Shown here in pieces: positions 9,048-41,805 of a stretch of DNA of 41,805 nucleotides. Within the stretch, counting starts at the first letter, position 1. The number at the start of each line of letters is the position of its first letter. Source of the stretch: Dirinaria sp. TL-2023a. Taxonomy: Eukaryota. Under the pieces are notes generated by a model. The model was given only the letters and a program-made list of their open reading frames with translations. It was not told where the DNA came from and did no database searches. The DNA lies in NCBI GenBank assembly GCA_051941275.1, contig JAVEBF010000037.1:1-41805 (forward strand), in the 5' to 3' direction. The position numbers and the translations under genes are program-made.

Positions 9048-10785
9048 TTACTCTATGAGATAGGAGTCCGCCCCTGAGTTGATGTCTTTGGTGAAAGACA
9101 AGTCCTGATCCATGTCTAATAAAGTGACAGAACGAACCTATGGACAAGTCAGCTAGGATACGGAGTTGGGTAGAGACATACATACATCAACGTCTATCAA
9201 TGGTTTACTCTTCGAGAACCGTACGCTCATTGGGAAAAATTCGCTTTCGTCTTTTGCTTGAGCCTCAAATTCGAAGGCCCCGGTACTGTTGGATTCGTCT
9301 ATGGTGCCTACGCTCCACTCTAGACTGTCCCCTGACACCTCGTATACAGCGTCGAAGCTAGACACGGCGGGCTCGCTGGTAACATAGGGGATAGTCACAG
9401 TGACATCCAGGAGACTGTCCGACCCTGACAATTCATATTCAACGGTGATCGTCCAGGACTCGTCCGAGCCTTGATTTGTCCATACTGTGAAAGTAATAGG
9501 CAGCGCGTCCCCGGTAGTAGCGCTTGCGGTCCACCGGAGGACTCCGACAGAATTATTGACAGGAAAGCCTTTCGAAGTGTCTCTTAGCTGTACGGCTTTC
9601 GAATTATTGAATAAGACTTTGTCTACATTAGGATGTGTTCGGAATTGGGCACCATGGGTGACATTAGCGACCAAATCGAGCTTGACTTTTGTGAGGCTGG
9701 GATCTGAAATACGAAGCTGAAGGTCGCCTTTGACATTGAATGATTTCAAAGTACCCTCTCTCGAAATTTTCGCTGAAATGCTCTCGGCAATGGTAGCATG
9801 GATGGCATCACGGTCGGCGGAGATTGAGGCTCGAGCTGAAGGTGTAGCCTCAGTTGCCGACATAGCCTGTGGTACAAGCGGAGTAGATTCTTCAATTTGT
9901 GAAGTACCAAGGTCTCCACGGACGCGCTCGAACATATCTGTCGTCTTCGATTTCTTACCCAATTGCATACCTTTTCCTTTTGGTGCGGTCGCTCTGCTAC
10001 AATTTAGTATAATACCCTAGCTAGATCGGTACCAGTGAAACCCACTTGTACGATCGATTCTTCTCAGCCTCATAGCTATCGTAATTGTCGTGTGTGGTGG
10101 GACGAGGTGGTGGAGTGTAGACTGGATACGAGGGCGTACGAGGAACAGCGCCACGACCGCTTCGAGCCATTTCCTTACGTTGAAGTTCAAGCTGCTTGGC
10201 TTTTCTTTTGCGTTCCTCAGTAGCTTCAAGCTCCTTGTTCTGTCGCGACAAATTAATCCCTTTCCAAGTGTTCGATGTGACAGCATCCATACCCGCGAGA
10301 TGATCTCCTGTATCCGCTCTTCATGACTTTCCATTTCCAGAAATGTCTTTATCTGGCCCAAAGACAGGTTTTCTCGATAACCCAAAGTAACAAGCTCGTC
10401 AAAGGCACTGAGCAGCTCGTAGGCATTACGGAGGATCTCTCGCTCATCCAAGCTCTTGCAGATACTACTTACAACTTGTGCAAACAAATGCAACGAGTCA
10501 ATGTCTTGAAGAATGTTCGATTGTCGATTAGTGATGAGAACCATATAAAGCTCGTCCAACGGCTGATACACGTATCGAACATTGTCCTGCTCCACTGTGG
10601 TATGTTGTGTGCCTGAGTCCGCTAGTTTCGGAAAAGAGGCCAATAAACCCTCAATTCGTGAGCGTGCTACTTCCCGAAATTGGCGTGACAGAACAGCCTT
10701 TCCTCCACGAGTACATATCGAAGCCGCAAGGACAACCTAAATAGAGTCAGCACAATCTTGCCATCTGTCGTCTCTGCAGTACCAT
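9048..10785 (-). CDS. RET2: Coatomer subunit delta (delta-COP), 5 exons
   Basis: ATG-only first exon (10785-10783), intron 10782-10737, then VVLAASICTRGGKAVLSRQF. Longin-like segment VRYVYQPLDELY...SNILQDIDSL...EMESHEERIQ. C-terminal mu-homology region QFRTHPNVDK...GVLRW. Final exon 9137-9048 ends YLIE-TAA. Confidence 0.95.
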
Positions 10786-11422: not shown

Positions 11423-14063
11423 ATGGACACACAGGAAAATGCAGATATCCCTCGACTCGGTCTGCCATCCAATGAAGATCCCATGCGACTCTCTCCAGAC
11501 ATGGACAGGCATCTATCTGCTGATGAGGACATCGATATCGACATCGACATTGAAAGCGAAATTACACATAACGACGACAATAGCATGGATCGACAAGATG
11601 GTGGTGGCCATGGATCCGACACAGGAAATGATGACGAGATGATCGACGATAAGGATATTCAGGGGGAATATGGCGATAACACATCACTCATTGACGAAGA
11701 TCTTGATGATGTAGAAGGTTCTGTGGCGGAAAATGCTGAAGCTCTTACGGGAGAGGAACACCAAGATAGTGGAATCAAGCAAGACGTGCCACGTGCTGAG
11801 AGTTTCCTGATTGGGAGTGCAGCAGAGACAAGCGACACTCAGGGACAAGACCAGTATAGAGAATTGAGGGAGGATTTTGGTGATGATGCGCTACAAGTCG
11901 ATTTGGAACAGCCATATTGGGACCAGAATGTTCAAAACACCGAAAATGCTGGCAAGGGCAGTAGCCAGGCTGGAGCTGAAAACTTGGCGCAGGAAACAAA
12001 CATTGAGGCTCACGACTTCGATGGTTCAACGAAAGGCCAGGCAGACTTTGCCTGGACGGAACCAGCTAGGAGGCAGGTGTCCGCGACAGGGGAACCAACA
12101 TCGGAAAACGAGGAAATTGCCTCTAGTACACCGCGGCGCGAAGCAGCAGAATTGCAACCTGAAAGTCCAAGTAGCGGACAGCAACCAGAGTATCAGTACT
12201 TACATCCTATCATTGTTGTCTACCAGGGCAACGAGATGTCATTGTTTCCTCCTTCGGATCAAGGTTCGGAGCAATCACAGACATACTTTTTGCACGATGA
12301 GGCTTTTGCTCGAGACAGTATCAGCAATCTACTGCAGCAATGCAGATTGGTTCTCGACGATAGCATAGAGGCGCACGATAAGCTGGAGCTCAAGATTCCA
12401 GATCTTGGGGTTAACATTGATGAGGTAGGGACTACATTCCATTTAGACTTCAAAAATTCACTAATAATGGTATTCCTATAGTCTACCGCATTGACTACCG
12501 ACACTACTTTAGCTCAGATCGTTGATATCTATCTACATCTGGCCCACAATGATAGACAGGACGATCCTGGTCCACTTTATACCGAGCTTTGCGTCAACAC
12601 TTCATGCTTGAACCGCTTGGAATATCTATTAACTGCTGTTGCTGATGGAAAGGGCCTGTCGCAATTAGAACCTCTCTTTGCATTCGAAGAGTCAAATCAA
12701 GATGATGGATTAAGCTACGGCGAGGAAGACACCAATCAAGAGCAAAGAACTACTTCGAAAGGATCTTCAGAGACATATAGCCCAGCAGGAGCAATCCCAG
12801 CTCACGCTGATCAGGGCGGTCTGAGCAACAAGATGCAGAAGAGCCCAATGCCATCACTAAGCGTCGAAGATGACGCTGTCAAGCATGTCTCCAAACCTAA
12901 TGATAGGCCTGTTGGAACTTCGTTAGAAGATACTGAAATTGAGAATCTTACCGAACTTGCTGACGAGAAAGTGACGAAAACTGAGTTGTTTGCAGCAGAT
13001 ATAAAAGAGGACGGGGGAGTGATCCTTAGAACAGAGGAACAGAAGGAGAACGCTACTGATGATATCATCGATTATCCCAATGATGATGATCTTGCTGGCG
13101 ACTCGTCAGCAGGATCATCCACACTTCAAGGGGATGTCAATGACCAGAAGGCATCAAACTTACCTCATTCAACCCAGGCATCAGCCCTTTCCACGCCCGA
13201 TGCTATCGATACCGATATACCGCCGTCAGAATACGAGTCCGCGAGCCTAGACGATATCCACCATAATCTCGAAGGGCTTCTGGATCAGCCTGCGCTCGAA
13301 GACCAGCGGACGTTTGGTACTGATAAGGAGTCTTCCTCAAACGAGCATACAGCGGGAATTGCAGCGCCTCTGTTGGAGGACGGCAATGATTACAGCCTAA
13401 TAGAGGAGTATGAAGAAGCCAACAGTATCCGCGATGATGTGCCAGTCGACGAGTCGTTTGTAGAAACCCGAACCCAGACTCATATGCTAACAAGCCATAC
13501 GGAAGACCAGATTGAGAACATTTACGAGGAGACGCAACGTAGTAGCCATGCAGGAGAGCCGGCTACGGAAGCACGGAGTGGATTTCCTGAATTTTACCAA
13601 CACCGTGACACAGGCTCGACCATCAATAACGGCCCAACCGTTTCACAGGAATTGGGTCCTGTTACAAACGATATCAGTTCCAGCGTTGGAGAGGCAAATA
13701 GCGGCTTTGGTCACGACCGCTTCCGTGATATGCCCGAAAAATTGACTGCTGGATCTAACGATAGTCCCACACACTTACCGCTTCAGAGCATGACAGCAAC
13801 TGAGAAAGTTGGGTCGGCCCTGGATGACGCCGATGAAATCACCTTTGACGATGACGAAGACGACATGACTATTGCTAGTAAGCCTTCGGGCTTGAATGCT
13901 ACGCCTAGTCTAAGTCCCCATACGTTAAAACGGATGCGCAGCAGTCAGGAAGATGACCTTGGAGCAAACGGTGACTCTTCTGGTAAGTCGGCATCCAAGA
14001 TCCTTCACGCTGAGCATTGGACTAATCATTTGGACAGAGTCCAAACGCGTCCGGTCAACTTGA
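11423..14063 (+). CDS. Acidic, largely low-complexity protein resembling the Rmr1/DUF2420 family, 3 exons
   Basis: Exons 11423-12424, 12482-13982, 14038-14063 (GT-AG with CTAAT branch sites). D/E-rich. Central block HPIIVVYQGNEMSLFPP...TYFL...TLAQIVDIYLHLAHND...PLYTEL. Basic C-terminus ESKRVRST* (NLS-like). Family assignment is from recall. Confidence 0.75.
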
Positions 14064-17517: not shown

Positions 17518-20500
17518 CTAAGCCCATACGAACTTCTTCAACGAGTGACTCCATTGCTCCAGGTAGCCAGTGCTACGCTTGGCCTCATCTAATGATATGA
17601 TGTCTTGTTCCTCGACCAAGCGCGCGCCTTGGTTTTCGGGATGCTTTTCCCCCTCTAATTCAACGCGAACACCCAAAGCGGCTCTCTCAATGCTTTCGCC
17701 GATGGTTCGTACCAGTTCTCGGCCACTTACAAGTTGCGTATCTTGACCATCCGCGGAGGCGATGCTGGAGCGCGCGAGAAGCGCTTTGAAAGCCAAAAGC
17801 TTGATATCTGAACGATAATTCCATCCGCTGATACGGGACACTGCGCTTTCGATCCCAATTGTGGGCAGGTAACTCGGGCTTGCAGGCGCTTTTTCGAAAG
17901 CTGGACTTTCATCTTTACCCACGGCAGTGCTCAATGAACGGGTGTTCCTCTTCTGCACATCGCCTTGCCCAGGCTTGTACCTGATCACAATGCCCACGTT
18001 CTTCTGTTCGTCCATTTGGGAAACGGCAAGGGTAGAAGTCACATAAATACCGCATATTATGCTCGTAACGCTGCGAAGATCCACTCGCTCGTAGGACGAC
18101 ACTTTCTCTGTGTTCCAATCAAAGCGAACAGAGTACAGGGCAGCATCTGTGAGAAGCAGAATCACCTCTTCGAAGGGCCAAGTCCTGACTGTGTTGGGGA
18201 GTTGAGGGCTAAGCATGGTCCAACCGCTGATGAGATCCTCATGCTGGTCCGCGATGACAATTTTCGAACTGGTTTCGATAGCGTTAGCTCGAATCTTTCC
18301 CATTGAAATGCCCGGGTCACCGCTCATCATATCAGCTTCGAAATCGTCGAACACGGATGCATCGATGTTGCCCAGCAGATAGTCGATTGCAGCTTGAGAA
18401 AAAAAGTCGCTAACAATATTATTATAATAACGAGAAAGCGTCAGACCAAGGTCGTTGATCGCTCCTCTGTAGTTCCGCTTTCTCGTTCGTGTATAGTCGC
18501 CCTTCAGCGCTGCCGTCGATGAATATTGCTTCGATATGGCATCGCCATTATCAGCCCATAAGGTGTTGAACCATTGTGTTGTAGGATCTCGTGCGAAATC
18601 GACCTCTACTCCTTCATGTTGCAGCTGCTTCTCCAGAACCTTTGATGCACAGGCACTTTGTGCGACATTGGTCCGGTCCAAGCAATCCATGCAATTGGTT
18701 CGAACGACACCAACCTGCTTCGCAAGCAGCTTGCCGCCCCTCTCTATGGTATATCCAAATCTGTCAAGAGAGCTGTCGAGCGAATCCACCAGGAGCTTAA
18801 CATTTTCGAATTTCATACCTCGACAAATCGTGTGAAAATCAAACCACTGAAACCCGATCTGCGTGCCACTGATACCACCCTCCTCATTCAGCTGCTGTAT
18901 ATGCATCTTGTACTGCTCTCCAATGGCAGCCTCGCCGCCCGTTTTATCGACCAAAGACACCGCATACATAGCGCCATATCTTTTTATAGCATTGGCGAAA
19001 TGGCGTCGAAAAGCGTCATGGTTTACCGTCGAAGAGTGTTGCAAGAGAGGCACCGGCTTGAAGGCATATGGGGACTGCGAGAAGAACAATGGGATCGAGC
19101 CACGTATCGAAGTGAAAGAATAAAGGTTTTCTTGGTTGTTCCAAGAGGCTTTAGACAGGATCTGTTCTGTCTCGACACTGTTCGCGGTGTGGCCTTGGTC
19201 ATCTACCCCTCGTCGTAAGTATCTCAGCCCCGGCCTTGAAGTCGATCTACGAGATATTAGAGTAATTAGAAAATTAGTGGGCTCTGAGGACTCTTCCTGA
19301 GTCTTGAGCACGTCTTCAAAGGTTTCTTCAGCACCCGAAATGACTCCTCCGGCATCGTCAGCAGCGACGTTAATTGAAAAGGTGCGTTGACCGACAAAGC
19401 CTTGCATCAATGGCAATACGTAAGCATGGTGGGAACCAGCTATGAACGGCGTTGCCAAATGATGATTCCAAAAGAACTGCGAGATGTATCAGCTTGCTAT
19501 CAAAGGGCGAGAAGAAACACGGTGGTCACCTACTATGGGATCTACAGAACGATGCAGTGGGACATCCTTGCTCTTAGTCCCTTGACTGCCCATCCTTCGT
19601 GTAATGTCGTAGTCATAGGAAAAGAAGAAGCTCTGAGAAGCTAAGAGCACCCTCGTAGTCTTAATAAGCTTTGGCAATAGCGTGTTCGTAATGCTCTCCG
19701 TAACTGACGCATTCGAAGCCTCATCACGAGATGACCGTTCTGCTTGCGTTGGTATCCGCCTGGACATCCCATCGCCGACATTAGCAGTTCCCGTATCGCG
19801 TTTTTCAGCGCTCGCTGCCTCCGCCTTCTGGGACGGAGATGTTTCCCTCTCTGGTTTCGGAAGACTGTCAGTACTCATGCCTTGCGTTCTTCTTTTTTCG
19901 CTACTCCAACCCTTTCTCGAAAACCACCTTTCTGCAAATCTACCATATTGGCCCCGCTTCCCAATCACATCCTCTGCTACACTGCTGCTCTTCGTTGTCG
20001 GTGCCGACGTCTCAGGGGACTTAGGTTCCGTGGGCGATGTCAAGTGAGAGTCTTCATCCTCAGATGTATCACTGTCTGCAGATGCCTCCAGCGTCTGCTC
20101 ACGGGATTCCGCTTCCAGGCTCAATTTAGCCTGCGCAATGGCATTCTTGGCATCCTTCTGCGAGGTCAAAGGTATGAGAGCAACACCCGTCACGACGTAT
20201 ATTGGTGAGCCTCGGATTTGTGCGACTTGCTTCCGACGAGATATAGATATCAGGTATGAGCTTGAGGCGACGCTCAACAGCCCTGCAATAGGACACTGAT
20301 CAGCTCACGGTTCTGGTCGATATTTGACAGAGCGGATACCAACAATGCCGTGAGCGTCAATGGAGGGTATATTCGCATCTTCTTTGGAAAAAGAGGTCTG
20401 AGATGTAATTTTATGAGAGGCGTACGAGATACGCAAGCTCTGGGTTTCTCTTTGATTGCGCTGCGCTACTGGTTTCAAGACCAGTCCATCGACGGCTGCT

Positions 20501-30343: not shown

Positions 30344-30799
30344 TCAAGCGTCAAAAATAGAAATTGAATGCGAGGTTGTTCATGTTTGGCATGATTATTG
30401 TCTTAGCTCCCTTCCGTCGGCGTGGTTCTCGGACAAGGTAGAGTAGACAATTGGACTAGGGGCTGGGATTAGGCAGGACGTGGGGATGGTGAAAGGATGG
30501 CTTGCCGTAGGGGTCCCGGCAGCAATTGCACCAGCAGAGTTTAGCCATCTGGTAAGTATGACATATTGGGGCGGCATAGCCTGTGCAACGACCGTAAGAA
30601 TACCTAAGGTAGCCTCGATTCGATAAAAAGAATACCTTAAGGGTATGGTCAGTAAGGTAAGGTAAGGTAGCCTCGCTGCGACATGACTTGAATCCTGTAA
30701 GGCAAGGTGTTGTAGGTGAGCTAAGAAAGTTTCGGGTATCTTGCTTACTCGTAGTAAGGGCGGTGGCAGTAGTAAATCTTACCTCAGGAGTAAGGTACG

Positions 30800-30855
30800 G
30801 TAGGTAGTAGTCGTAGTAGTACTACCCTACTACTACTACTGCTACTACTACTACC
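30800..30855. repeat. Opposed (GTA)n/(CTA)n tracts forming an imperfect inverted repeat
   Basis: gtagtagtcgtagtagt followed by actaccctactactactactgctactactactac. Central palindrome GTAGTACTAC at 30816-30825. Confidence 0.75.
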
Positions 30856-33844
30856 GCCCGTCGGTAGAGTTCAAGCGCACGTGATGTCGCAGCCTGCCGG
30901 ACCGGCAGGTTGGACCTGGGCCACCCTGCCCTGGCACACTACCTTACCTCTCGTACCTTAGGTACTAACCCACCTGAAGGTAGTAAGGTACTGGGCCCGC
31001 TTGGCCGGTTGGTAATGTTGCATGCCTTAGTGCGCCCAGAGGTACCTTGGCACCTTGCCTTACCTTAAGAGATGGTTCGACCAACGTCCAGGGCAAGCAG
31101 CATCGAACAGACTATCCTAAGGAAGCAATTACTCAATAAAGTCCAGCCTCGTACAAGCAAAATGGAAAGCCAACCTGCCTCAGGTCAGGTCACTTACGGT
31201 AAGCATGAGATCACAAGCAGAGCAGCATAGCCCACGATGTAATCGGTTAAAGTGGTACAATGAAGCGGCTGACACTCGGTCTATTCGTATTCGACTCTTT
31301 TCGATCAGTATGTACAGTCGCAAGCGACCAATTACTGGTCATAGGTGGCTTCTTGTCCTCATCCACAATCCATCTCGATGCACAATGGCGCCTGTCTTGC
31401 ACGCAACACGGCATTAGGCACGTGGGATGACAGCTGTTGACACAGCAAACATGCTTTTGCCATGACAGATATAATTAACTCTCGGATTTTGATCGCTGTA
31501 CAATGCTCGAGCCAATATACTGCTGTCCGTACCACCACCATCGCGACTCGTATCGATATTATGTGACAATGATCACAGATCTTTCGAGAGACTAAGCTTC
31601 AATAACTCAAAGAATACGCCCTCTCCGGTCGCTGAACACTGAGGCAGACTGTGTTTCTTCGACCGTATTCACTGCGTCCGTCCCCCGTTGGTGTCGTCAC
31701 TAAGTAGTGTGCGTTGTGACACACGAGCAGAGAAATCCGAAGGTCGCGACAAGCCAGAAAAGCATATTTTTCATTGGCGATTCGTCCTCTCCAATCGCAA
31801 GCAAAATGTGTAAAATGTCCATGTACGGTACTTTAATCCAAGTAGAGACTAGCTTCAAGCCAGGCATGGGTCTTGGCGCCAGTGTCGGTCCTGTACAGCC
31901 TCAACGTCAACGCTACTGAGGTACTTTATTCTATTTATTATTCCAGCTCGAGCGCCGAGAAGAAAATCTAGGGAAATCGTTGATTCGGTACTACTGAACG
32001 TCATGCAGGTTACATTTCCCATTCGTCCACTACTGACGATTGCGAAAACCCATCCCTTGCACCCGCCAAAATCCAGATGGGGGTTCGCTAGGTATGCAAG
32101 TAGCAATGGAAAAGGAACACGAAGTGTAGTCAGATGCTCACCTTATCGATAACTTTGTCGGCAGGCGTTTTGCATTTGCCAGCATTCGGTCAGAGCCAAT
32201 TTATGGCTAAATTACTGGCGCGCCATCTGCTGTCATCCATTCTAAGGTAGAAACCATCCGACTGAGCGATACCTAAAAAAAGATTCGCGGGTTCCTTGTG
32301 CACCACATGCGGCTTGAAGACCGTGTCCTCGCATAGTCTTGAGCGCGAACACAGCGCTCATCGGGTCCAGCATCTCTGACGATTCTCATCATTGCACCGG
32401 ACTTTCCGCACCGTCCGATGGGTCGCGGGTTTTTACTGTGTTGCCGCCAAGCAACTACTTACATACCACGTGTTGCGGCTCTCGACCCAGGACAGGCCAG
32501 TGTAGTACTTTAAATGCCCTACCGACCTAAGCTGAAATGATACAGACTCGCAATGAGACCGTTAGACGTAAAGTAGAATATGTAGTGAAGACCAATTCGA
32601 TGATACGCATATCATCGTTGTAAGATTACTGTCCTGTGGAGCACGACCGAAGGGATCGAGGAGGGTAACCGCCCAGCCGCCCTGAGGTACCTTAGTCAAA
32701 TCAACGGTACATGTAATCAGACGGCTTTCTGTCATGAAAGCCATCATCGATTTCCATTGTCCGGGAAATTCCCAATGGTTTTGGAGTACCTACAGTAGCT
32801 CTGTTCTGCACTTTTCCGCGCTGCATGGTGGGGTAAAAATAGATGGAAAACGCCGTGACGCCATGGCGCGAACCGATGCATGATGAAGTCAAGTATCGAA
32901 GTGCAAATCCCGAGGGTCAATTAACCAGGCACTATCTTACTACCCATTACCGTAACGCTACGGCAAAACGCAAGCCAACCAAAGCACCTCAAGCGGTTCT
33001 ACTGCTGATCGTTTGGCGGTACACTAGTAATACTGCCTAAGTGAGATAAGCAGATACCTTAGGTGTACGAAAGTAATACTTCGCGTGTGCTGTGAAGTAC
33101 GAGTACCTAGTCATAAATTGTTCACGTGGTATTCTGCGTCTCGTCTGGGGGCATGTGCCTGTCTGACGAGCCCTGCCTCTCTCTCACTCCGCTGCAGTTC
33201 CTACTCTTATTATTCCAAGTCACGCCCGTGTAAGGAAACAAGGTCAACGCATGCTTCTTTGCTATCGAATAAGCGTGAGAATAGCTTTTCCGTCCTACGT
33301 AGAAGCACCCCCAAGCGAAGATGATTAAGGTACGTTCATCATCGCGTCAGTGGCGCTTGTTCTTCCCCTACTTAATTCCAACTCGTATACCATTCACGGC
33401 CTTCCGGATCGAACCGGCCTGTGATGGTCTTCAGAGATCGTGGGTGTGTCTGTTCCATCATTGATTACTCACTACAGCCGCCATTACTGTGCCTATCCAC
33501 TCCATCTTGCCCAAATAGATGTCTTAGTCACAACTAATCCGTGTTGTGTGCTCCGTCTCCGGAGGTGGACGCCAAGCTCTTAACGCTATGCACCAAAGCC
33601 TGAATTTGCTAAACAGGGCAATGCTCAGAGTTGGAATCTCCCGAATGCCATCCTTCCAGTTTCTGTCCTTCAAAAAGGTACCCATGTTTGTGCCACGCGC
33701 AGAGCGACCACGACCAAGCATTAAGACCTGATTTAATAAAGCAACAAGTGAGCGATGTCCCGTTCCTTCAGCTCACAGTACCGGGTTTCTGAATGCTGCA
33801 AGTACGGAACTCATCAATTTCCTTATTGATTTGTTTGAGCTCCT

Positions 33845-36804
33845 TCAAAGGTTGTATTTTGTCTGCAGCTTCTGTTGCTCCGATGAGGGTAGTTGGGCAA
33901 TGAAGGCTTCGAAGTTCGGGATGAGAGCCTTGTATCCGATGAGATTCTTCATGGTAATGATTAGCTAGCACTGAGAAGGTAGCTGTCGTTTATCGACTTA
34001 CCCTGCGGAAAGACTCCTCGATAATATGCTGGTCGACTTTGGCTTTGGACCCGGCTGCGCATGCCTTGAAATAGTCAAGTAAGCAAGTCTCCATTGCCCG
34101 CGGATTCTTTTCTACGGTTAGGTTGAACCCCAAAATAGCACCTCCCTTCTCGTCAGTATCGTCAATGGGCCTAGTGATACGCAAAAAAGGCTGCGCGAAT
34201 TCTCCCAAGCGAGGAGCCAACGCGTCAGAACAGCCTACACCAAGGCGGCCAAGAGCGATAGCTGCATTTTCATGCACGGAAATTGGTATCTCAGGGTTAG
34301 TGATAATGGCCATGAAGCGGTAGTAAAGCTGTTCTACATGTGGAGCCATCCCTGCCACTTCTTTCATGGCAATCTCACCACATGACCAACAAGCATTGTT
34401 AATAACACCAAAACCCGTGTCGATATCCTCATCTTGCACAGAATCCAGATCCAACTGCTTGATTAACATTGGGAACACGGACTCGAGGAAGGGCTGGAGC
34501 TCGGCGAAAACTTTGACGGCGCAGTCGCCAAGCAAGGCGTATGACGATTGTCGCACATCATTGCTTGGATCTTCCATACAGAACATGAGTAATTCGAAGA
34601 AGTTCGGCTGCGACGACGTTACAAGCTCTTTGCTTCTTCGTGCATCCAATGCTTGAATCACTGCACTGAGCAAGTCGAGACTTGTGACTAAAAAATCTTT
34701 GTTTGGTTTATCCATTCCCTCGTACTTGGCTGCTAGTACGTATGCTTCGAGGTTCTGGTGGATAATGCTGATGCATCGATTGAACACCGGGACCGCGAAC
34801 GGGTCGAAAAAGCCGCCCAATGCCGTAGCCACATAAGAGAGGCATTCTAGCATAGGGAATAGCTCCTGAGCCTGGTCGGAGACTTTGTTCCAACGTTCTA
34901 TGATTGCTGGCATTAAGAAATTAATCGTCTCAGGTCTTGCTAATGCAGGGCCCACGTGCTCCGCCAGTGTCTGTACGCAATCATAGAGGACGAGCATATT
35001 TCGATCTTTATAACGCTGGAAGCATTGTACAAACCTGTGTATAATTGGCGCGCAGTAGGGCGTGAGTTCGGAGGCGGCTTTCTCTTCCAGACTCGCGAAA
35101 GCGGATACAGCAGACTGCTGAACTCTCTTGTTCTTATCGAGCATGCGGTTGAGGATTCCTTCTATCATTGGCTCAAAGTAGCGCTTCTTCTCGTCGGAAT
35201 CTTGCAAATGGGAAGCCCAGTATGAGTACCGGCCAAGAGACCAACATGTAATTACTCTCACGACCGCTTCCTCGTCACTTAGCAAGGAAATGAGGTAGGG
35301 TATAAGCTCTGGCAGATGTGGCGTGACCGCCTCCATACATCCATCCGCCACAGCCCCTATTGCAAGTACAGCTGCTTCCCTGTAAGGCCAGTCATGATGT
35401 GGTAAGTTATCCTTGAGATATGGCAAAGTCATGGCAAAAACTGGCTGATGAAAATTCGAGGCTAGTACGTCGAGTGTCGCCGCTGAGCATTTGCGCAAGT
35501 TCCAGTTCTCTTCTACGTCAGCTCCGTCATCGTATTCATCAATTTCACCCTCGCTAAGGTCGTCATCGTCGTCCTCTGGCACCATTGCCTTCGGTTTTGA
35601 CGATTCTGAGGAATTGACCTCTGGATCAGCATGTTGACCATTTGTAGCCGCTCGTAAATTCTTAGCCTTTGCGAATTGTGGCTTTAAGTCTTCGGCTCTG
35701 TCCTCTTGGTTTGCGTCATCAGGGTCACCTTCCAGGCGTATTATGTCTTCTTCATCGTAAACCATACTTTCCAGAAGCACTGGAACGATTTTGTGCAAGT
35801 AAGGCCCTAGAGTGTGGCACATATGATTGTTTTCGCCAACGCAGAGCCAAAATTCTGCCGCCTCCAACGCCAGCTCGGGATCCTCAGCGTTACGTTGTTG
35901 TTGTAAGAGCATGTAGTCTACTAAACCTTCCATATGTGGCTGGAGTTTCTCGGGTATGACATCAACAAGTTGGACGAATGAATGGCATACATTCTTCCTC
36001 ACGTTGCTGCTTGCATCGTTCGCGAGCTGGAACAAATGTGCCAACAGTTTTTCCAGCGACATCATGATTGTCGGCGACTTCTCCGGAATGAAATAATTGA
36101 GACTGGCAATTGCAGAGGCTCGCACCCCAGGCAGCTGACTGGACATCATCCCGAGTAGTCTGGGGAAAATAAAATCCAAAGGCTGTTGCCCTTGATATTC
36201 TTTACCCAGGACCTTCTTGTTATCTTCGCAGACTTTCAGTAGAGCATTGCTTGCACCTTCCTGCGCCGCTGCAGAGGTGCGGCCGTTGTCGTTGCTGGCG
36301 AGCGAAAGAAGCTCGGGAAGCAGTGTCGGCCAGCCAAGGATACCTCCGCGTTGCACTACCTCTGTAACCACGCTTCCTGCGACATTTCTTATCGACACAC
36401 TAGGGTCCTGAAGACAAGTAAGCGCCGAAACTTGAATATAACTCCGAGCCGCCCCTGTCATTGATTTGTAGGAAGACCTGACGCAATTTTTTAGATTAAG
36501 ACCGGCCGATGTACGGATAAGGACAAGCTCATCAGACTTGATATCGAGCTTCTGGAGTTGATGGCCCGCTACGAAGATATGGGTCAAGTAACTGGAAAAA
36601 TCGGGAGAAGGTTTCGCTTGAGTCAGCATCTATGTCAGTATATGTCAGCCACTTTCGGTATTAATACCCGCTTGGCACTGATTCTGTGAGAGTTAGGCAT
36701 ACCAAGGTAGCTCTTTTCTGGGCATCGTTGTCCCGAGCGCTGAGTGCATCCCTAAGATAGCCTGCCAGCTGCCGTAAAGTCTCTTCGTCCGGCTGCCAAG
36801 CCAT
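33845..36804 (-). CDS. KAP104: Transportin / importin beta-2, 3 exons
   Basis: MAWQPDEETLRQL start. HEAT-repeat protein with ALEAAEFW, acidic H8 loop (DRAEDLKPQF...DDDDLSEGEIDE), WNLRKCSAATLD, REAAVLAIGAVADGC and NNACWSCGEIA. Exons 36804-36703, 36629-34002, 33946-33845 (ends LQTKYNL*). Confidence 0.95.
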
Positions 36805-37612: not shown

Positions 37613-39450
37613 TTTGCCACACCATAAGGTTCAGGTGTGTAGGTAGGTAGCACAGGTAAGTACTGTAAATATCTCAAATTGCAGTTTGCTTTCTAAGGTA
37701 AGTTAACGACAAGAAATCAATGTCGGCATGTACAGTGAACACGGAGAGAATGCTCCATCTATGTTGCCAAATACCCACTTAGCGCAGCCCTCAAATTTCA
37801 TGACTAACATTGAGTCACTACCTTACCTAATCCTGTGCCACATCTTTGCCGCGCTCATAAAGCCGTTTGTCAATGGCCAGAACGACATCCGCTGAGCGAC
37901 AATCCTTCATACTTCCTATGGTTTCATGTATCAGCTGAAATTTCCATTCGCAAGCAATCCTACTTGCTCTTGGTTGAGATGGAGTCTTGCCGATCACAGA
38001 ATTTAGTATGATACCCCCCGAAGGCTTGAAGTGACCGTGCTAGTAGGCTCAGTAGCAGGATCATTTAAAGTCTGTCACACCTCTCCTTGAACATGGCACA
38101 CTTGCCCACGCAGTCGTTGAGCGAGGAATTGATTGCGTCTTGGGTATCCACTAGCACTGTTGAGGTGGACTCAAGTAAAGGTTTCTTTGAAATTTAAGGG
38201 TCTTCGGCCTCCTTCGCCCTTCATGTGTGGGTCTTCCTTTCCTGTCTCTTCCGTTAATTCTGTTCTTTTCCCTCATTCTTCCTTCCCTTCCCTACTTGTT
38301 TCGCTTCTTTTACATATCTCCTGGTTTCTGTTGTGTTCACATAGTTTAGAATCTCTTCATCTCTTCCTTCGATAAAATAAGATTGAGGGTCTGCGAAGCG
38401 AGTAGTCTTTCAAAAGCTCGAGATGATATTGGATTGTCTATGCCTAGCCTGCCGGAACGGCTGCGAACCCATCGCAAGCTCTACTCCTGAGGGCTGGCAG
38501 GTAATATACCGTCCGGCTCGCTGATCCCTCACGAGTGTCCGTGACTAGATTGTCATCGAGTCGTTGAATAGTGTCGGCAGCTTCGAGGTCATCATTGTTA
38601 CTGTAGAGCCCCACGAGTACATGATAGTTATGAGTCCCCAGTGGCAAGAGTGAGCAGATCTATCCTGCGGAAAGCCTAGTGACCTAGTGCTTTGGGAATC
38701 TCCGATCGACGTGTGCCAGAAGCCACTTTTTTAGCTTATGCGGCGTGGTTCGAATCAAATTACATGCGTCTTAGGACTAGCCTAAACCAAGTTTCATTTT
38801 CCGCCGCAAAAGGATCCCCACTGCCGCTATTATGGACCAAATGGTCATGCAAGTCGCCTCTCCTGAACGGCGTATAGGCCAGTCCCAAGCGCCTGAAATG
38901 ACCGCTGCTGCATGTCTGAAAACCTTCATGCAGTCGGTTCAGGATCCTTGACGCGCATTTACGAAAGCTATCCGCGTCTAGGCCCTGGTTTTATGCAAGC
39001 AGTATCCTTTGTTCTCCGATATTTCCTGTGTTGAACTGATTGAGGATGCTCAACCTGCACGGCATAGTCGCTCCATGCTGAGAGTAGAGGACTTACTGAT
39101 ACGAAACCGGCTAGCATGACCGGCTTCGATTGCAGGTGGAGAGTTTACAGCTCCGACTACGCGTGGAGGTTTTGTGGGCCCTACACTTCAGCTCCGTGAA
39201 GCTCGGCTCCTACCAGTTGGCTGTGTTACATACAACAGGAGCTCGCAGCTAGGGCCACTTCTCTCAAATTATTCTTAACCCCGATCTAGTTATTCACTAA
39301 ATCCGACTTCAAAGCTACTTAAAGTCTCGAGTCCACAGTTGTTTCTAAATCATTATTCTTATTATCTGTCCCTCCTAGCGATCAACTGGGTTTTCTTCTT
39401 ATCGTAATCTATACCATATATCATAGAATCACACTGCTGGTTATCCGCAA

Positions 39451-40497
39451 ATGAAGCCCTCACATTTGGTCCACTTGGCTATTTCCTGTCTTCTATCAAC
39501 GGCGTCTCTTATCAAAGAACTACCCTCAACTGGTCAAGAACTCGCACTATTGGAACGGTCTACTCACACTTCAGTCGCGGTCATACACCAGTTTCCCCAC
39601 AATACCTGGATTGAAAACCTAGCCATTCGGCCCAATGGTCAAGTTCTTGTGACGACTCTGACGTCTCCTGACCTTTACCTCATTGATCCATTCCGTGCTG
39701 GACGCTCAGTTCTCGTACACAGCTTCTCGGACCATCTCTGTCTACTGGGAATCGCGGAGCTCCAGCCAGACGTCTTCTATGTAATAACCGGTAATTACTC
39801 TCAGCGGACCAATGCCAATCCTTCAGGCGCGTGGGATGTTTACAGCGTTGACATGAGGGCTCCGCAGCCTAAAATCGGCCTTTCAGGGCACTTTCCAGAT
39901 GCAATTCTTCTGAACGGCATGGCAGTTCTGAATTCCCGCGCCGGCTTTTTGCTTATTGGAGATGCTGGAGCAGGTATTGTCTACCGTCTAAATGTACATA
40001 CTGGCGCCATCGCAGTCGTCTTGGACGATCCCCTTATGAAGCCTCCGAGGGGTGGTCCTGTCGGCATAGACGGGCTTCAAATTCGCCACAGCCAGCTCTA
40101 TTGGACTAATGCTGGACAAGGTCTTCTAATCAAGACTCCGCTTTACGCAGATGGAAGAGCAGCCGGACCATCCACGATGCTCATGAAAGGCTTAGAAATG
40201 GACGACCTTGCGCTAGATACTACAGGCGATGCGTTTCTAGCTGTGACCTATCGCAACGAGATTGTCAAATGGTCGAGTGGTGGTGATCTTGGAGGTACGA
40301 ATACAGTGATTAGAACGTCACAGGGCAATTTGGTCGGACCTACGGCGTGTAAATTTGGTAGGACATTGCGAGATAGCCAGATGCTGTATGTTTCTACAAA
40401 TGGCGGCTTAAAAGCCGGCAACGGTTCACGGACGCCTGGCGGGACTTTATCAAGGGTTGATCTTGGATATTTGATGAATCTTCCGCGTACGTCATGA
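39451..40497 (+). CDS. Secreted six-bladed beta-propeller protein (SMP-30/gluconolactonase-like fold)
   Basis: Intronless 348 aa ORF with a hydrophobic N-terminal signal peptide. Blade motifs WIENLAIRPNG, LLNGMA, GIDGLQIR, DDLALD and GPTACKFGR...LYVSTNGG. Confidence 0.82.
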   Translation: MKPSHLVHLAISCLLSTASLIKELPSTGQELALLERSTHTSVAVIHQFPHNTWIENLAIRPNGQVLVTTLTSPDLYLIDPFRAGRSVLVHSFSDHLCLLGIAELQPDVFYVITGNYSQRTNANPSGAWDVYSVDMRAPQPKIGLSGHFPDAILLNGMAVLNSRAGFLLIGDAGAGIVYRLNVHTGAIAVVLDDPLMKPPRGGPVGIDGLQIRHSQLYWTNAGQGLLIKTPLYADGRAAGPSTMLMKGLEMDDLALDTTGDAFLAVTYRNEIVKWSSGGDLGGTNTVIRTSQGNLVGPTACKFGRTLRDSQMLYVSTNGGLKAGNGSRTPGGTLSRVDLGYLMNLPRTS

Positions 40498-40795
40498 GAG
40501 GAAAGGTACGCCGCAGCAGAATAGGGCGGGATGTATAGGCGGGTTCGTAAGTGAGACTTAGACATATGTTATAAAATTGATCGCATTTGATACTCGGCAT
40601 TTGCACCCTATTATTCGTATGGATTGCTCACATCTGCGTGACAATACTACAATGATGTAATATTTTGCTGAGATCGTATAACAATATCACAACAACGCCA
40701 CGTTATAGAATCTGTCACAAAAAAAGTGGGGGGTGAGAGACGTGTATGGACTTCGACATATAAGCAATCACTTTTGTCTTTATTTAATCGTCTGA

Positions 40796-40815
40796 TTTTT
40801 TTTTTTTTTTTTTTT
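40796..40815. repeat. Poly-T tract (~20 nt)
   Basis: Read directly. Confidence 0.9.
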
Positions 40816-41314
40816 GGATGATGCGATCAGAATAGCAAAGACAGTGTTCCTGGCTGTAAATCAGCCAGTCAAAGGTAACAGTGTTTGCTAGCTTACCTGG
40901 GTGAAAAGACGACGGCCAACTGAAATAAGTAATTAGAATCTTGCCTATGCGCCCGCAGGTGTAAGAACAGACGTCGTCAAGGCCAGGAGACGTTGTATGG
41001 ATAGCTAGTAAGTGTTAATTGTTTGCTAAGGAAGATAACTTAGCTATGAGAGCGAGAATACTTAAGTATAACATCTTGCTCTCTCTTGATAAACTGTTGC
41101 GTAGCAACGTCCAAAAGGTGGGAGAACGAATGCGTAGAAGTCTGGACTGCTAAAGTCCAAAAGGACTGCCTATTAAATACCATGGTACTAACTAGTCTAC
41201 ATACAGCATAGTGCTAGACGGTTTAAAAGGGCAGTCGTCAAAAGAGAAGTCACCGCAGTTCTACGATTTTCTAACATGATAGATCTTCTATTAATATGCT
41301 ATCATACTCTGCTA

Positions 41315-41805
41315 TGTCGTAACAATCTGCTCGAAACAAAAAAAATAAAATGTCGTTCTCGACATCAATTTCGAAATCTGAAAAATCGACGAGAAAATAC
41401 AACGATGATGTCAGAACCTCAACTCTAGTCATTAGATAGATTTTATTCAGAGAAAATCTTGACAACAATGATAACTATCAAAAAAATAACTAATCAAGTC
41501 AGCGACTTAATTGTTTATTTTACGACTTATGTTTAGAGTCGTAACACTTCCTCTCTTTATGAAAATCGCGTTTCGCGATAAGCTAATTAGAGCGAGTTAT
41601 GACGCACATTTCAAAAAAGAATCTCAATATTGTTGACAGAGAATAGTAATCGTCTCGAGTTTATTTAAATAAACTCTCAGTCGCAGATTCTCGTCGAAAA
41701 ACAACTCTTTAAGCGTTTGAGCTAAGAATCGAATTCAGAATTTTGCGATCGTGTTGACTTAATTTAATATCGAAATCTCAACTTTAGATTATATAAATTT
41801 TACTC
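41315..41805 (-). mobile_element. Degenerate LTR retrotransposon (probably Gypsy-like): 3' LTR, PPT and end of the internal region, running off the window edge
   Basis: On the minus strand a purine tract AAAGAGAGGAAG (41558-41547) directly abuts TGTTACGAC (41546-41538), the PPT/LTR junction layout. It is preceded by the small hairpin TCGCGAAACGCGA. The putative far LTR end is ...GTTACGACA at 41315, but this boundary is uncertain. The region is AT-rich with no long ORF. Confidence 0.62.

Follow-up and report, generated by a model that had tools for sequence, protein, structure and literature searches.

The final 550 nucleotides (positions 41256 to 41805, no strand assigned) of contig JAVEBF010000037.1 from Dirinaria sp. 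TL-2023a (assembly GCA_051941275.1), a contig of 41,805 bases that was analysed in full and is referred to here as the window, are the edge of an AT-rich block almost devoid of CC and GG dinucleotides, which by its composition and by shuffling is a putative hypermutated repeat relic. The block occupies the very end of the contig and runs off it. The AT-rich compartment bordered by this end was probably produced by a repeat-associated C-to-T hypermutation that resembles repeat-induced point mutation (RIP), with a preference for cytosines followed by a second cytosine (CpC). The existence of a CpC-directed hypermutation in the lineages compared here is highly probable, and the involvement of the RIP machinery is favoured with less assurance. 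The central proposal of the original prediction, that the target is a C before a C (CpC to TpC, or GpG to GpA on the other strand), is supported by AT-rich blocks in related lichen fungi, by the fates of codons in dead long interspersed nuclear elements (LINEs) and by the leakage of changes into neighbouring host sequence.

Within the block, CC occurs twice and GG is absent, compared with 16.8 and 11.1 occurrences expected from base composition, and CG is found 28 times against 13.6 expected, an observed/expected ratio (o/e) of 2.06. The dinucleotides TC (51, o/e 1.64) and GA (42, o/e 1.50) are enriched, and CA (28, 0.81), TG (21, 0.83) and TA (47, 0.73) are somewhat below expectation. The two strands are thus alike, both in CC and GG (2 and 0) and in TC and GA (51 and 42). 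The GC content is 31.6%, compared with 49.0% in the rest of the window, and a G followed by a run of A is far commoner than the reverse order (GAAA 8, AAAG 1). The hand counts of the original prediction proved exact for positions 41271 to 41805 (CC 2, GG 0, CG 27), and the words that it described as abundant are so, with 17 TCG, 16 CGA and 8 TCGA in the block. The two surviving CC lie on the forward strand at 41417..41418 and 41550..41551 in the dinucleotide listing, with neither CC nor GG beyond the second as far as the contig end, and the last 255 bases lack CC altogether. Gaps of 164 and 133 bases in the block are the longest CC/GG-free stretches of the window, the next longest being 93 bases. 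As had also been predicted, CC and GG are common elsewhere, every other 550-base window holding at least 30 of them (median 60). Mononucleotide shuffling of the segment, repeated 20,000 times, never gave as few as two CC plus GG (mean 27.5, minimum 12), and a chance origin of the depletion is excluded. The switch in composition is as abrupt as was claimed, with the last CC ahead of the block at 41253-41254. The flank at 40600..41255 contains 43 CC plus GG, and the o/e of 0.80 over these roughly 650 bases falls between the 5th percentile (0.75) and the median (0.91) of the window, an ordinary value that makes the border a sharp one.

The same counts bear on the processes that are known to deplete cytosines in fungal DNA. 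Classical RIP directed at CpA, decay of methylated CpG or dipyrimidine damage of the ultraviolet (UV) type could each be proposed for the block, and all three are contradicted by its dinucleotides. Relative to the rest of the contig, its densities are 0.65 for CpA, 0.03 for CpC, 0.93 for CpG and 0.90 for CpT, and the ratio (CpC+GpG)/(TpC+GpA) is 0.022 compared with 0.815. CpA and TpG therefore remain present, in agreement with the original prediction, and with the TpA o/e of 0.73 their persistence at 0.65 of flank density argues against classical RIP. Decay of CpG would leave a loss of CpG and an excess of TpG and CpA, in place of which CpG is doubled over expectation and stands at 0.93 of its flank density, and the o/e of TG is 0.83. 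Damage of the UV type would remove TC, which is enriched here. The criterion used for CpA-type RIP, a TpA/ApT ratio above 0.89 together with a (CpA+TpG)/(ApC+GpT) ratio below 1.03, does not flag the block, where the two indices are 0.80 and 0.94; the first threshold is the one quoted in the available text of PMC3897900. The earlier statement that the pattern is neither classical RIP nor CpG decay is upheld. In favour of these familiar processes are the AT-richness and sharp border of the block and the reports of RIP in Lecanoromycetes, as far as their accessible portions go (PMC12542154; preprint 10.1101/2025.11.25.690456), and as a group they are nevertheless the least credible of the explanations considered.

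A further candidate is the hypermutation of Pucciniomycotina and smuts, which is reportedly targeted at TpCpG. It is similar in being RIP-like, in using a context other than CpA and in having been found in silico in transposons. That system destroys TCG and belongs to another phylum, whereas in the block the density of TCG is 1.78 times the baseline and TCG plus CGA reach 60 per kb compared with 33.6 per kb elsewhere in the window, and it was rejected on these grounds. The work on it by Horns et al. 2012 is cited in the consulted portion of the paper describing OcculterCut (PMC4943192).

The nature of the depleted sequence becomes clearer from related fungi. The importin-beta-type gene of the window (33990..36629, minus strand; HEAT_EZ, IPO5-like and IBN_N Pfam matches) served as an anchor both for assigning the lineage and for fetching related loci, and the best named relatives of its protein all come from lichen-forming Lecanoromycetes. 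An alignment of 22 importins was made, and 80 loci around importin relatives were fetched with 10-kb flanks from metagenome contigs, of which 25 (L001-L024 and L067) were judged Lecanoromycete-like from the identity of their importins. The AT-rich blocks adjoining the importin gene in these loci fall into two classes. Class B blocks (L001-L003, L004 with L006-L011, and L024) are free of CC and GG like the end of the window, measure 1.7-8.7 kb and have a CC+GG o/e of 0.01-0.48; measured against the genic flank, their densities are 0.00-0.07 for CpC (0.27 in L011), 0.39-1.19 for CpA and 0.67-1.12 for CpT, with no enrichment of TpA. The counts of CC and GG are alike within every such relative block, and the genic flanks have normal composition. 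Class A blocks (the Lecanorales-like loci L014 and L018-L022, grouping with Lecanora and Letharia) are the mirror image and correspond to textbook RIP, with CpA at 0.02-0.07 of the flank, CpC at 0.28-0.66 and a TpA o/e of 1.4-1.9, the flank-relative densities excluding L019 and L022, which were classed by a scan of block o/e only. The recovery of class A shows that sister lineages with classical RIP are recognised as such by the method. By its CpA (0.65), CpC (0.03), CpG (0.93) and CpT (0.90) densities the window is class B, alongside its closest relatives L001 and L003; the importins of L001-L003 are 74-76% identical to that of the window, and in a tree of this one gene they are its sister clade, supported at 100/100. 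The CC/GG-free scar is common to three other Lecanoromycete lineages besides that of the window. The treatment of CpG differs among them: it is retained in the L001 and L003 blocks (o/e 2.3-2.6, about 0.5 of flank density), as in the window, lies at about 0.2-0.6 of flank density in L004-L011 and is at 0.00 in L024, where 4 CpG remain in 6,160 bases, a depletion resembling CpG decay that occurs as an additional feature only in this locus.

Copies shared between blocks of the relatives differ in the manner expected of C-to-T changes. In pairs of copies that are 76-91% identical, transitions outnumber transversions by 66:9, 56:8, 25:1, 38:3, 33:6, 21:1 and 41:5, and once the alphabet is collapsed to purines and pyrimidines, identities of 78-91% become 95-99%. 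Opposite a CC in one copy, the other has TC in 50 cases, CT in 24 and TT in 15. The direction of change can be read in the flanks of seven haplotypes (L004 and L006-L011), whose 18 kb of genic flank show 98-99.7% identity and in which direction was inferred from the majority state. Up to 1 kb from the block there are 24 C>T changes and 5 T>C, with CpC as the context of 11 of the 24 and five of the C>T sites outside CpC falling in a misaligned microsatellite; more than 3 kb away the numbers are 59 and 67, with CpC in 11 of the 59. The changes in the flank alignments include GGG to GAA, GG to GA and TCC to TTC. A second case is provided by L024, which is equivalent to L023 with a 5.95-kb insert carrying a nearly full-length LINE ORF2 (L024:1052-7001, compared with L023:7012-7019). 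The insert is stripped of CC, GG and CG between flanks that are 99.7% and 98.6% identical in the two loci, and the first 500 bases of its right flank have 14 C>T changes compared with 3 T>C. Changes thus leak into the single-copy flanks of the relatives' blocks. As this LINE insertion is polymorphic within a species and is yet free of all three dinucleotides, the process that altered it is argued to be fast. The AT-rich blocks of the seven haplotypes themselves (coordinates 1 to about 4400) are largely non-homologous, only L009 with L010 and L007 with L008 pairing up.

The sequences destroyed in these blocks can be recognised as retrotransposons, and their codons identify the base that is changed. 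A 500-codon read-through of L010:1-1500, with stops written as X, was used as a query and gave 8,747 protein matches at E ≤0.001, the long intact ones being ORF2 proteins (from the second open reading frame, ORF) of non-long-terminal-repeat (non-LTR) retrotransposons with Exo_endo_phos_2 and RVT_1 domains. By tblastn, LINE ORF2 relics are found in L007, L009, L010 and L024 and weakly in L001, and families are common to several blocks. Gly, Pro and Trp are all absent from the 500 codons of the L010 frame, compared with about 5%, 5% and 2% in intact homologues. Codon fates were scored in L010, L024 and L007, pooled, at positions with at least 60% agreement among 89 intact homologues. The 48 conserved Pro positions (CCN) are now TCN in 18 cases, TTN in 21, CTN in 5 and something else in 4, with no CCN left; the 35 conserved Gly positions (GGN) have become GAN (14), AAN (9) or AGN (10), with one GGN and one other; and the 14 conserved Trp positions (TGG) are TGA in 11 cases, TAA in 2, TAG in none and other in 1. 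A g precedes 8 of the 10 AGN codons at conserved Gly, as expected from GGG to GAG. Single changes thus fall in CC on its 5′ C and in GG on its 3′ G, which are one event seen from two strands, and the Pro, Gly and Trp fates together indicate that a C with a 3′ C is the base changed, on both strands. The His codon CAY is kept at 16 of 19 conserved positions, from which it follows that CpA is not a preferred target, another point against classical RIP. The in-frame stops are predominantly TGA, the numbers of TGA, TAA and TAG being 23, 6 and 0 in L007, 15, 5 and 1 in L010, and 34, 18 and 11 in L024.

These codon fates also decide against editing of retroelement cDNA before integration by an enzyme of the APOBEC3G kind. 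APOBEC3G recognises a CC motif, edits its 3′ C and acts on one strand of retroviral cDNA prior to integration. The identified victims here are likewise retrotransposons and the motif is the same. However, one strand of one element is saturated with C-to-T and with G-to-A changes alike, Pro and Gly codons both being lost; it is the 5′ C of CC that is changed (TCN 18 compared with CTN 5, TGA 11 compared with TAG 0); and the changes spill over into host flanks. Strand asymmetry, confinement to the element and a 5′-neighbour specificity, as would mark editing of the APOBEC/AID type, are not what is observed, and this candidate was rejected as very improbable. Action on both strands of integrated DNA, the flank spill, the transposon targets and the 3′-neighbour specificity argue for RIP in place of cDNA editing.

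Proteins of a corresponding kind are present in public databases. The public protein collections searched contain many 'proteins' (among P0121-P0322) that are without Gly and Pro and have about 2% Trp, and none of the 54 proteins listed in the P0175 family, the longest of 1,062 residues, has more than 6 Gly or more than 6 Pro. A second sample for codon fates consisted of the 35 Gly/Pro-free proteins among the best 150 of the 8,747 matches. In these, 330 conserved Pro positions are occupied mainly by S (188), L (55) and F (48), and 228 conserved Gly positions by D (55), E (50), K (48), N (34), S (19) and R (17). Conserved His is H in 94 and Y in 17 of 117 cases, and conserved Trp is W in 104 of 109. 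Since proteins of this composition have no GGN codons, their W is taken to be encoded by TGA, and the Trp residues would then represent TGA read as Trp by gene callers. The Gly/Pro-free database proteins are probably CpC-mutated LINE relics translated in this way; a search for exact matches between them and the fetched loci under table 1 or table 4 gave none. With TGG converted to TGA and TAA or TAG seldom created, such relics keep long frames open when TGA is read as Trp.

Several results weigh against a mutator that acts on CpC alone, or against the extension of the relatives' history to the window. An exhaustive in silico change of CpC to TpC in ordinary DNA of the contig reproduces the block for CG (30 predicted, 28 observed), TC (57, 51), CT (40, 37) and AC (28, 29). 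It yields a GC content of 39.1% (sd 2.1) compared with the observed 31.6%, and it misses TG (38 predicted, 21 observed), GC (23, 13), AA (45, 81) and TA (28, 47), a misfit indicating either that other contexts were also changed in the block or that its ancestor was A-rich. In the 35 Gly/Pro-free proteins, Asp is changed to Asn in 77 of 176 cases, Glu to Lys in 48 of 94, and Ala is changed in 169 of 285, frequencies that make the specificity a strong preference and not an absolute rule; this ORF-based sample is itself biased towards frames without TAA or TAG. A tabulation of changes by 3′ neighbour, as suggested with the original prediction, was carried out on the relatives' copies and gives the highest C/T mismatch fraction with a 3′ C, at 0.40, an excess that is modest beside the 0.23-0.28 of the other neighbours, its small size being attributed to the exhaustion of CC in most copies. 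The proposed CpC target is accordingly retained as the preferred context, and as the sole one it is incomplete, other contexts being changed at lower rates in the relatives. The left flank of the L024 insert has no C>T change in 1,051 bases. The relics are not recognised directly by Pfam: the best match, to RVT_1, has an E value of 0.0096, below the family cut-off, 60 stop-free ORFs of the relatives' blocks gave sub-threshold matches only, and an 860-codon read-through of L010 gave no match. In the window itself, mutation leakage in the flank of the block is not detectable, and the repeat origin and ancestral composition of the block would have to be taken from its relatives.

The latter point concerns the earlier description of the block as a transposon relic. 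The association with repeats holds for the relatives and finds no counterpart in the 550 bases themselves, for which no LTR, repeat or coding homology was found. A repeat search of 40700-41805 gave only short chance-level pairs and a T-run, the block has no ORF longer than 78 amino acids and 8-18 stops in every frame, a read-through of its best frame has no protein match at E ≤0.01, the LINE proteins do not match it, and an exact 26-base word from it has 0 matches in the metagenome contigs. The polypurine tract and 'GGGA loop' that had been read into the block are short strings with no supporting structure, and both features are unsupported. The missing homologue, repeat or ancestor, the position at a contig end of a metagenome-assembled genome and a composition more AT-rich than the CpC model predicts would all suit a window without hypermutation, whose end could be a naturally CC/GG-poor spacer, a satellite, a foreign fragment or a mis-join. 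The same signature recurs, with CpG likewise kept, inside contigs of 107-673 kb in the closest relatives L001-L003, and in relatives it is demonstrably derived from transposon genes of normal composition, with chance excluded; an origin without hypermutation is on this evidence improbable. By analogy, the window block is more readily seen as repeat-derived and as having arisen by the same process as the relatives' blocks.

The candidate agent of this CpC-preferring hypermutation is a machinery of the RID/DIM-2 type with a changed 3′-neighbour preference. The scars share with the RIP of Pezizomycotina such as Neurospora crassa and Leptosphaeria maculans, which depends on RID and DIM-2, the C:G to T:A transitions, the repeat and transposon targets seen in the relatives, the action on both strands, the AT-rich blocks with sharp borders, the leakage into single-copy DNA and the subphylum. 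They differ from its classical form in that the 3′ neighbour is C and not A, CpA and TpG are kept and TpA is not enriched, and in that stops arise in the relics as TGA and not as TAA or TAG. An alternative is a cytosine mutator other than RIP that acts on silenced AT-rich compartments, whether duplicated or not, for example a DNA deaminase directed to heterochromatin or a DIM-2-like CpC methylation followed by slow deamination. Neurospora RIP prefers CpA over CpT over CpG over CpC, and a mutator favouring the context that classical RIP likes least could be something else. The variation in CpG treatment between lineages, with block-to-flank densities of 0.93 (window), about 0.5 (L001 and L003) and 0.00 (L024), would likewise fit two overlapping processes. 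Against a slow decay stands the L024 insert, fully free of CC, GG and CG between flanks that are 98.6-99.7% identical, which speaks for fast hypermutation. Sharp borders, short leakage, both strands and transposon targets are moreover all typical of RIP, and homologues of RID and DIM-2 have been reported in the genome of another Lecanoromycete in the accessible part of PMC12542154. Such a non-RIP mutator is thus unlikely, though it is the strongest of the competing explanations.

Published accounts, as far as their available text extends, describe RIP-affected AT-rich regions in the lichen fungi Cladonia rangiformis (PMC12542154), Xanthoria (preprint 10.1101/2025.11.25.690456) and Endocarpon pusillum (PMC3897900). 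The regions resemble those described here in type of organism, compartment architecture, sharp borders and the presence of LINE/Tad1 and LTR relics, and in the sections consulted RIP is defined by GC content or by classical indices (RIPper), with no dinucleotide context given. In the parts seen of more general works, CpC to TpC figures in RIPCAL as no more than a formal possibility (PMC2621366), OcculterCut describes AT-rich regions as biased towards TpA (PMC4943192), a 2025 survey covering 1,239 fungal genomes finds that a CpA preference is common to RIP-like defences (PMC12543289), and a 2026 review assigns a CpT preference to DIM-2 (PMC13297926). No report of CpC-dominant RIP was found in the portions of the literature searched, with supplements and subscription papers such as Clutterbuck 2011 outside its scope. 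The CpC type, which occurs in several lineages of lichen fungi, is apparently a form of RIP that has gone undescribed.

In the mechanism proposed on this basis, the end of the window would be the border of an AT-rich compartment in a lichen-forming ascomycete of the Lecanoromycetes. The hypermutation would act on double-stranded, integrated genomic DNA with transposons as its targets, and its preferred substrate would be a cytosine with a 3′ cytosine, giving CpC to TpC and, on the other strand, GpG to GpA. At saturation all CC and GG would be lost, runs of C turning into T...TC and runs of G into GA...A, with a fall in GC content. CpG would be untouched in the lineage of the window, hence its apparent two-fold enrichment. 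In coding repeats, all Pro and Gly codons would be erased and TGG would become TGA, and a spill of a few hundred bases into host sequence could accompany the formation of sharp-edged blocks. A more specific proposal, on which the evidence is evenly poised, is that the RIP machinery switched its dinucleotide target within the Lecanoromycetes, with CpC attacked in the clades of the window, L004-L011 and L024, CpA kept as the target in the Lecanora/Letharia-type clade, and CpG handled in a lineage-specific manner ranging from spared to erased.

If correct, the existence of a CpC type confined to certain clades would mean that RIP can evolve in its target context, against the view of RIP as a CpA-directed process, and would offer a natural series of specificity variants of RID/DIM-2-type enzymes. 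The occurrence of different contexts in close lineages could provide a route to the part of the enzyme that reads the 3′ base. Standard indices and tools, such as TpA/ApT and RIPper-type scans, would under-call RIP in these fungi, and in lichen metagenomes, contigs that are AT-rich and CC/GG-free are easily lost or put into the wrong bin. The Gly/Pro-free 'proteins' in public sets, which reach 1,062 residues, can mislead surveys of genetic codes and protein families, and relics of this kind could pass for genetic code 4 in metagenome pipelines.

The position of the blocks is a further observation from the fetched loci. Most of the Lecanoromycete-like loci (L001-L004, L006-L011, L014, L017-L022 and L024; locus coordinates 1 to about 9400) have an AT-rich block upstream of the importin gene, in both the CpC and the CpA class, at a distance of 0.6-5.6 kb, the distance in the window being 4.6 kb. 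This suggests that a transposon graveyard or compartment border has persisted for long beside the importin gene, with its synteny conserved. A block at a contig end in L017 (L017:1-760) has a GC content of only 4-14% and, judged by o/e, no CC/GG depletion. An insertion of 1.2 kb that distinguishes L004 from the other haplotypes, at L004:13742-14966 (and L005:6221-7080), has an AT/TA-rich, AA/TT-poor core that contains CC and GG, and it may be a short element escaping the mutator.

The remainder of the window is ordinary eukaryotic sequence. In addition to the importin gene, Pfam identifies a SacI/hSac2 phosphatase, a class II cAMP phosphodiesterase and an adaptor medium subunit; the genes are split by short introns, some of them in frame, and the GC content along the gene-bearing sequence is 45-55%. 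The last long ORF before the block (39427..40497, plus strand, 356 amino acids) has no Pfam family and no relative or orthologue in the fetched loci. Tandem Repeats Finder reports a run of 20 T in the intergenic flank at 40796..40815 (plus strand), and Rfam and tRNA scans of the window gave no match. The intergenic region at 30600-31060 contains many GGTAAGGTA words and an inverted (GTA)n/(TAC)n run, with a TpA o/e of 1.83 and a TC+GA o/e of 0.54. Three long frames of the window are each interrupted by a single in-frame stop (12479-12481, 19489-19491 and 10017-10019), and these interruptions look like short introns with lengths that are multiples of three, not like a variant genetic code.

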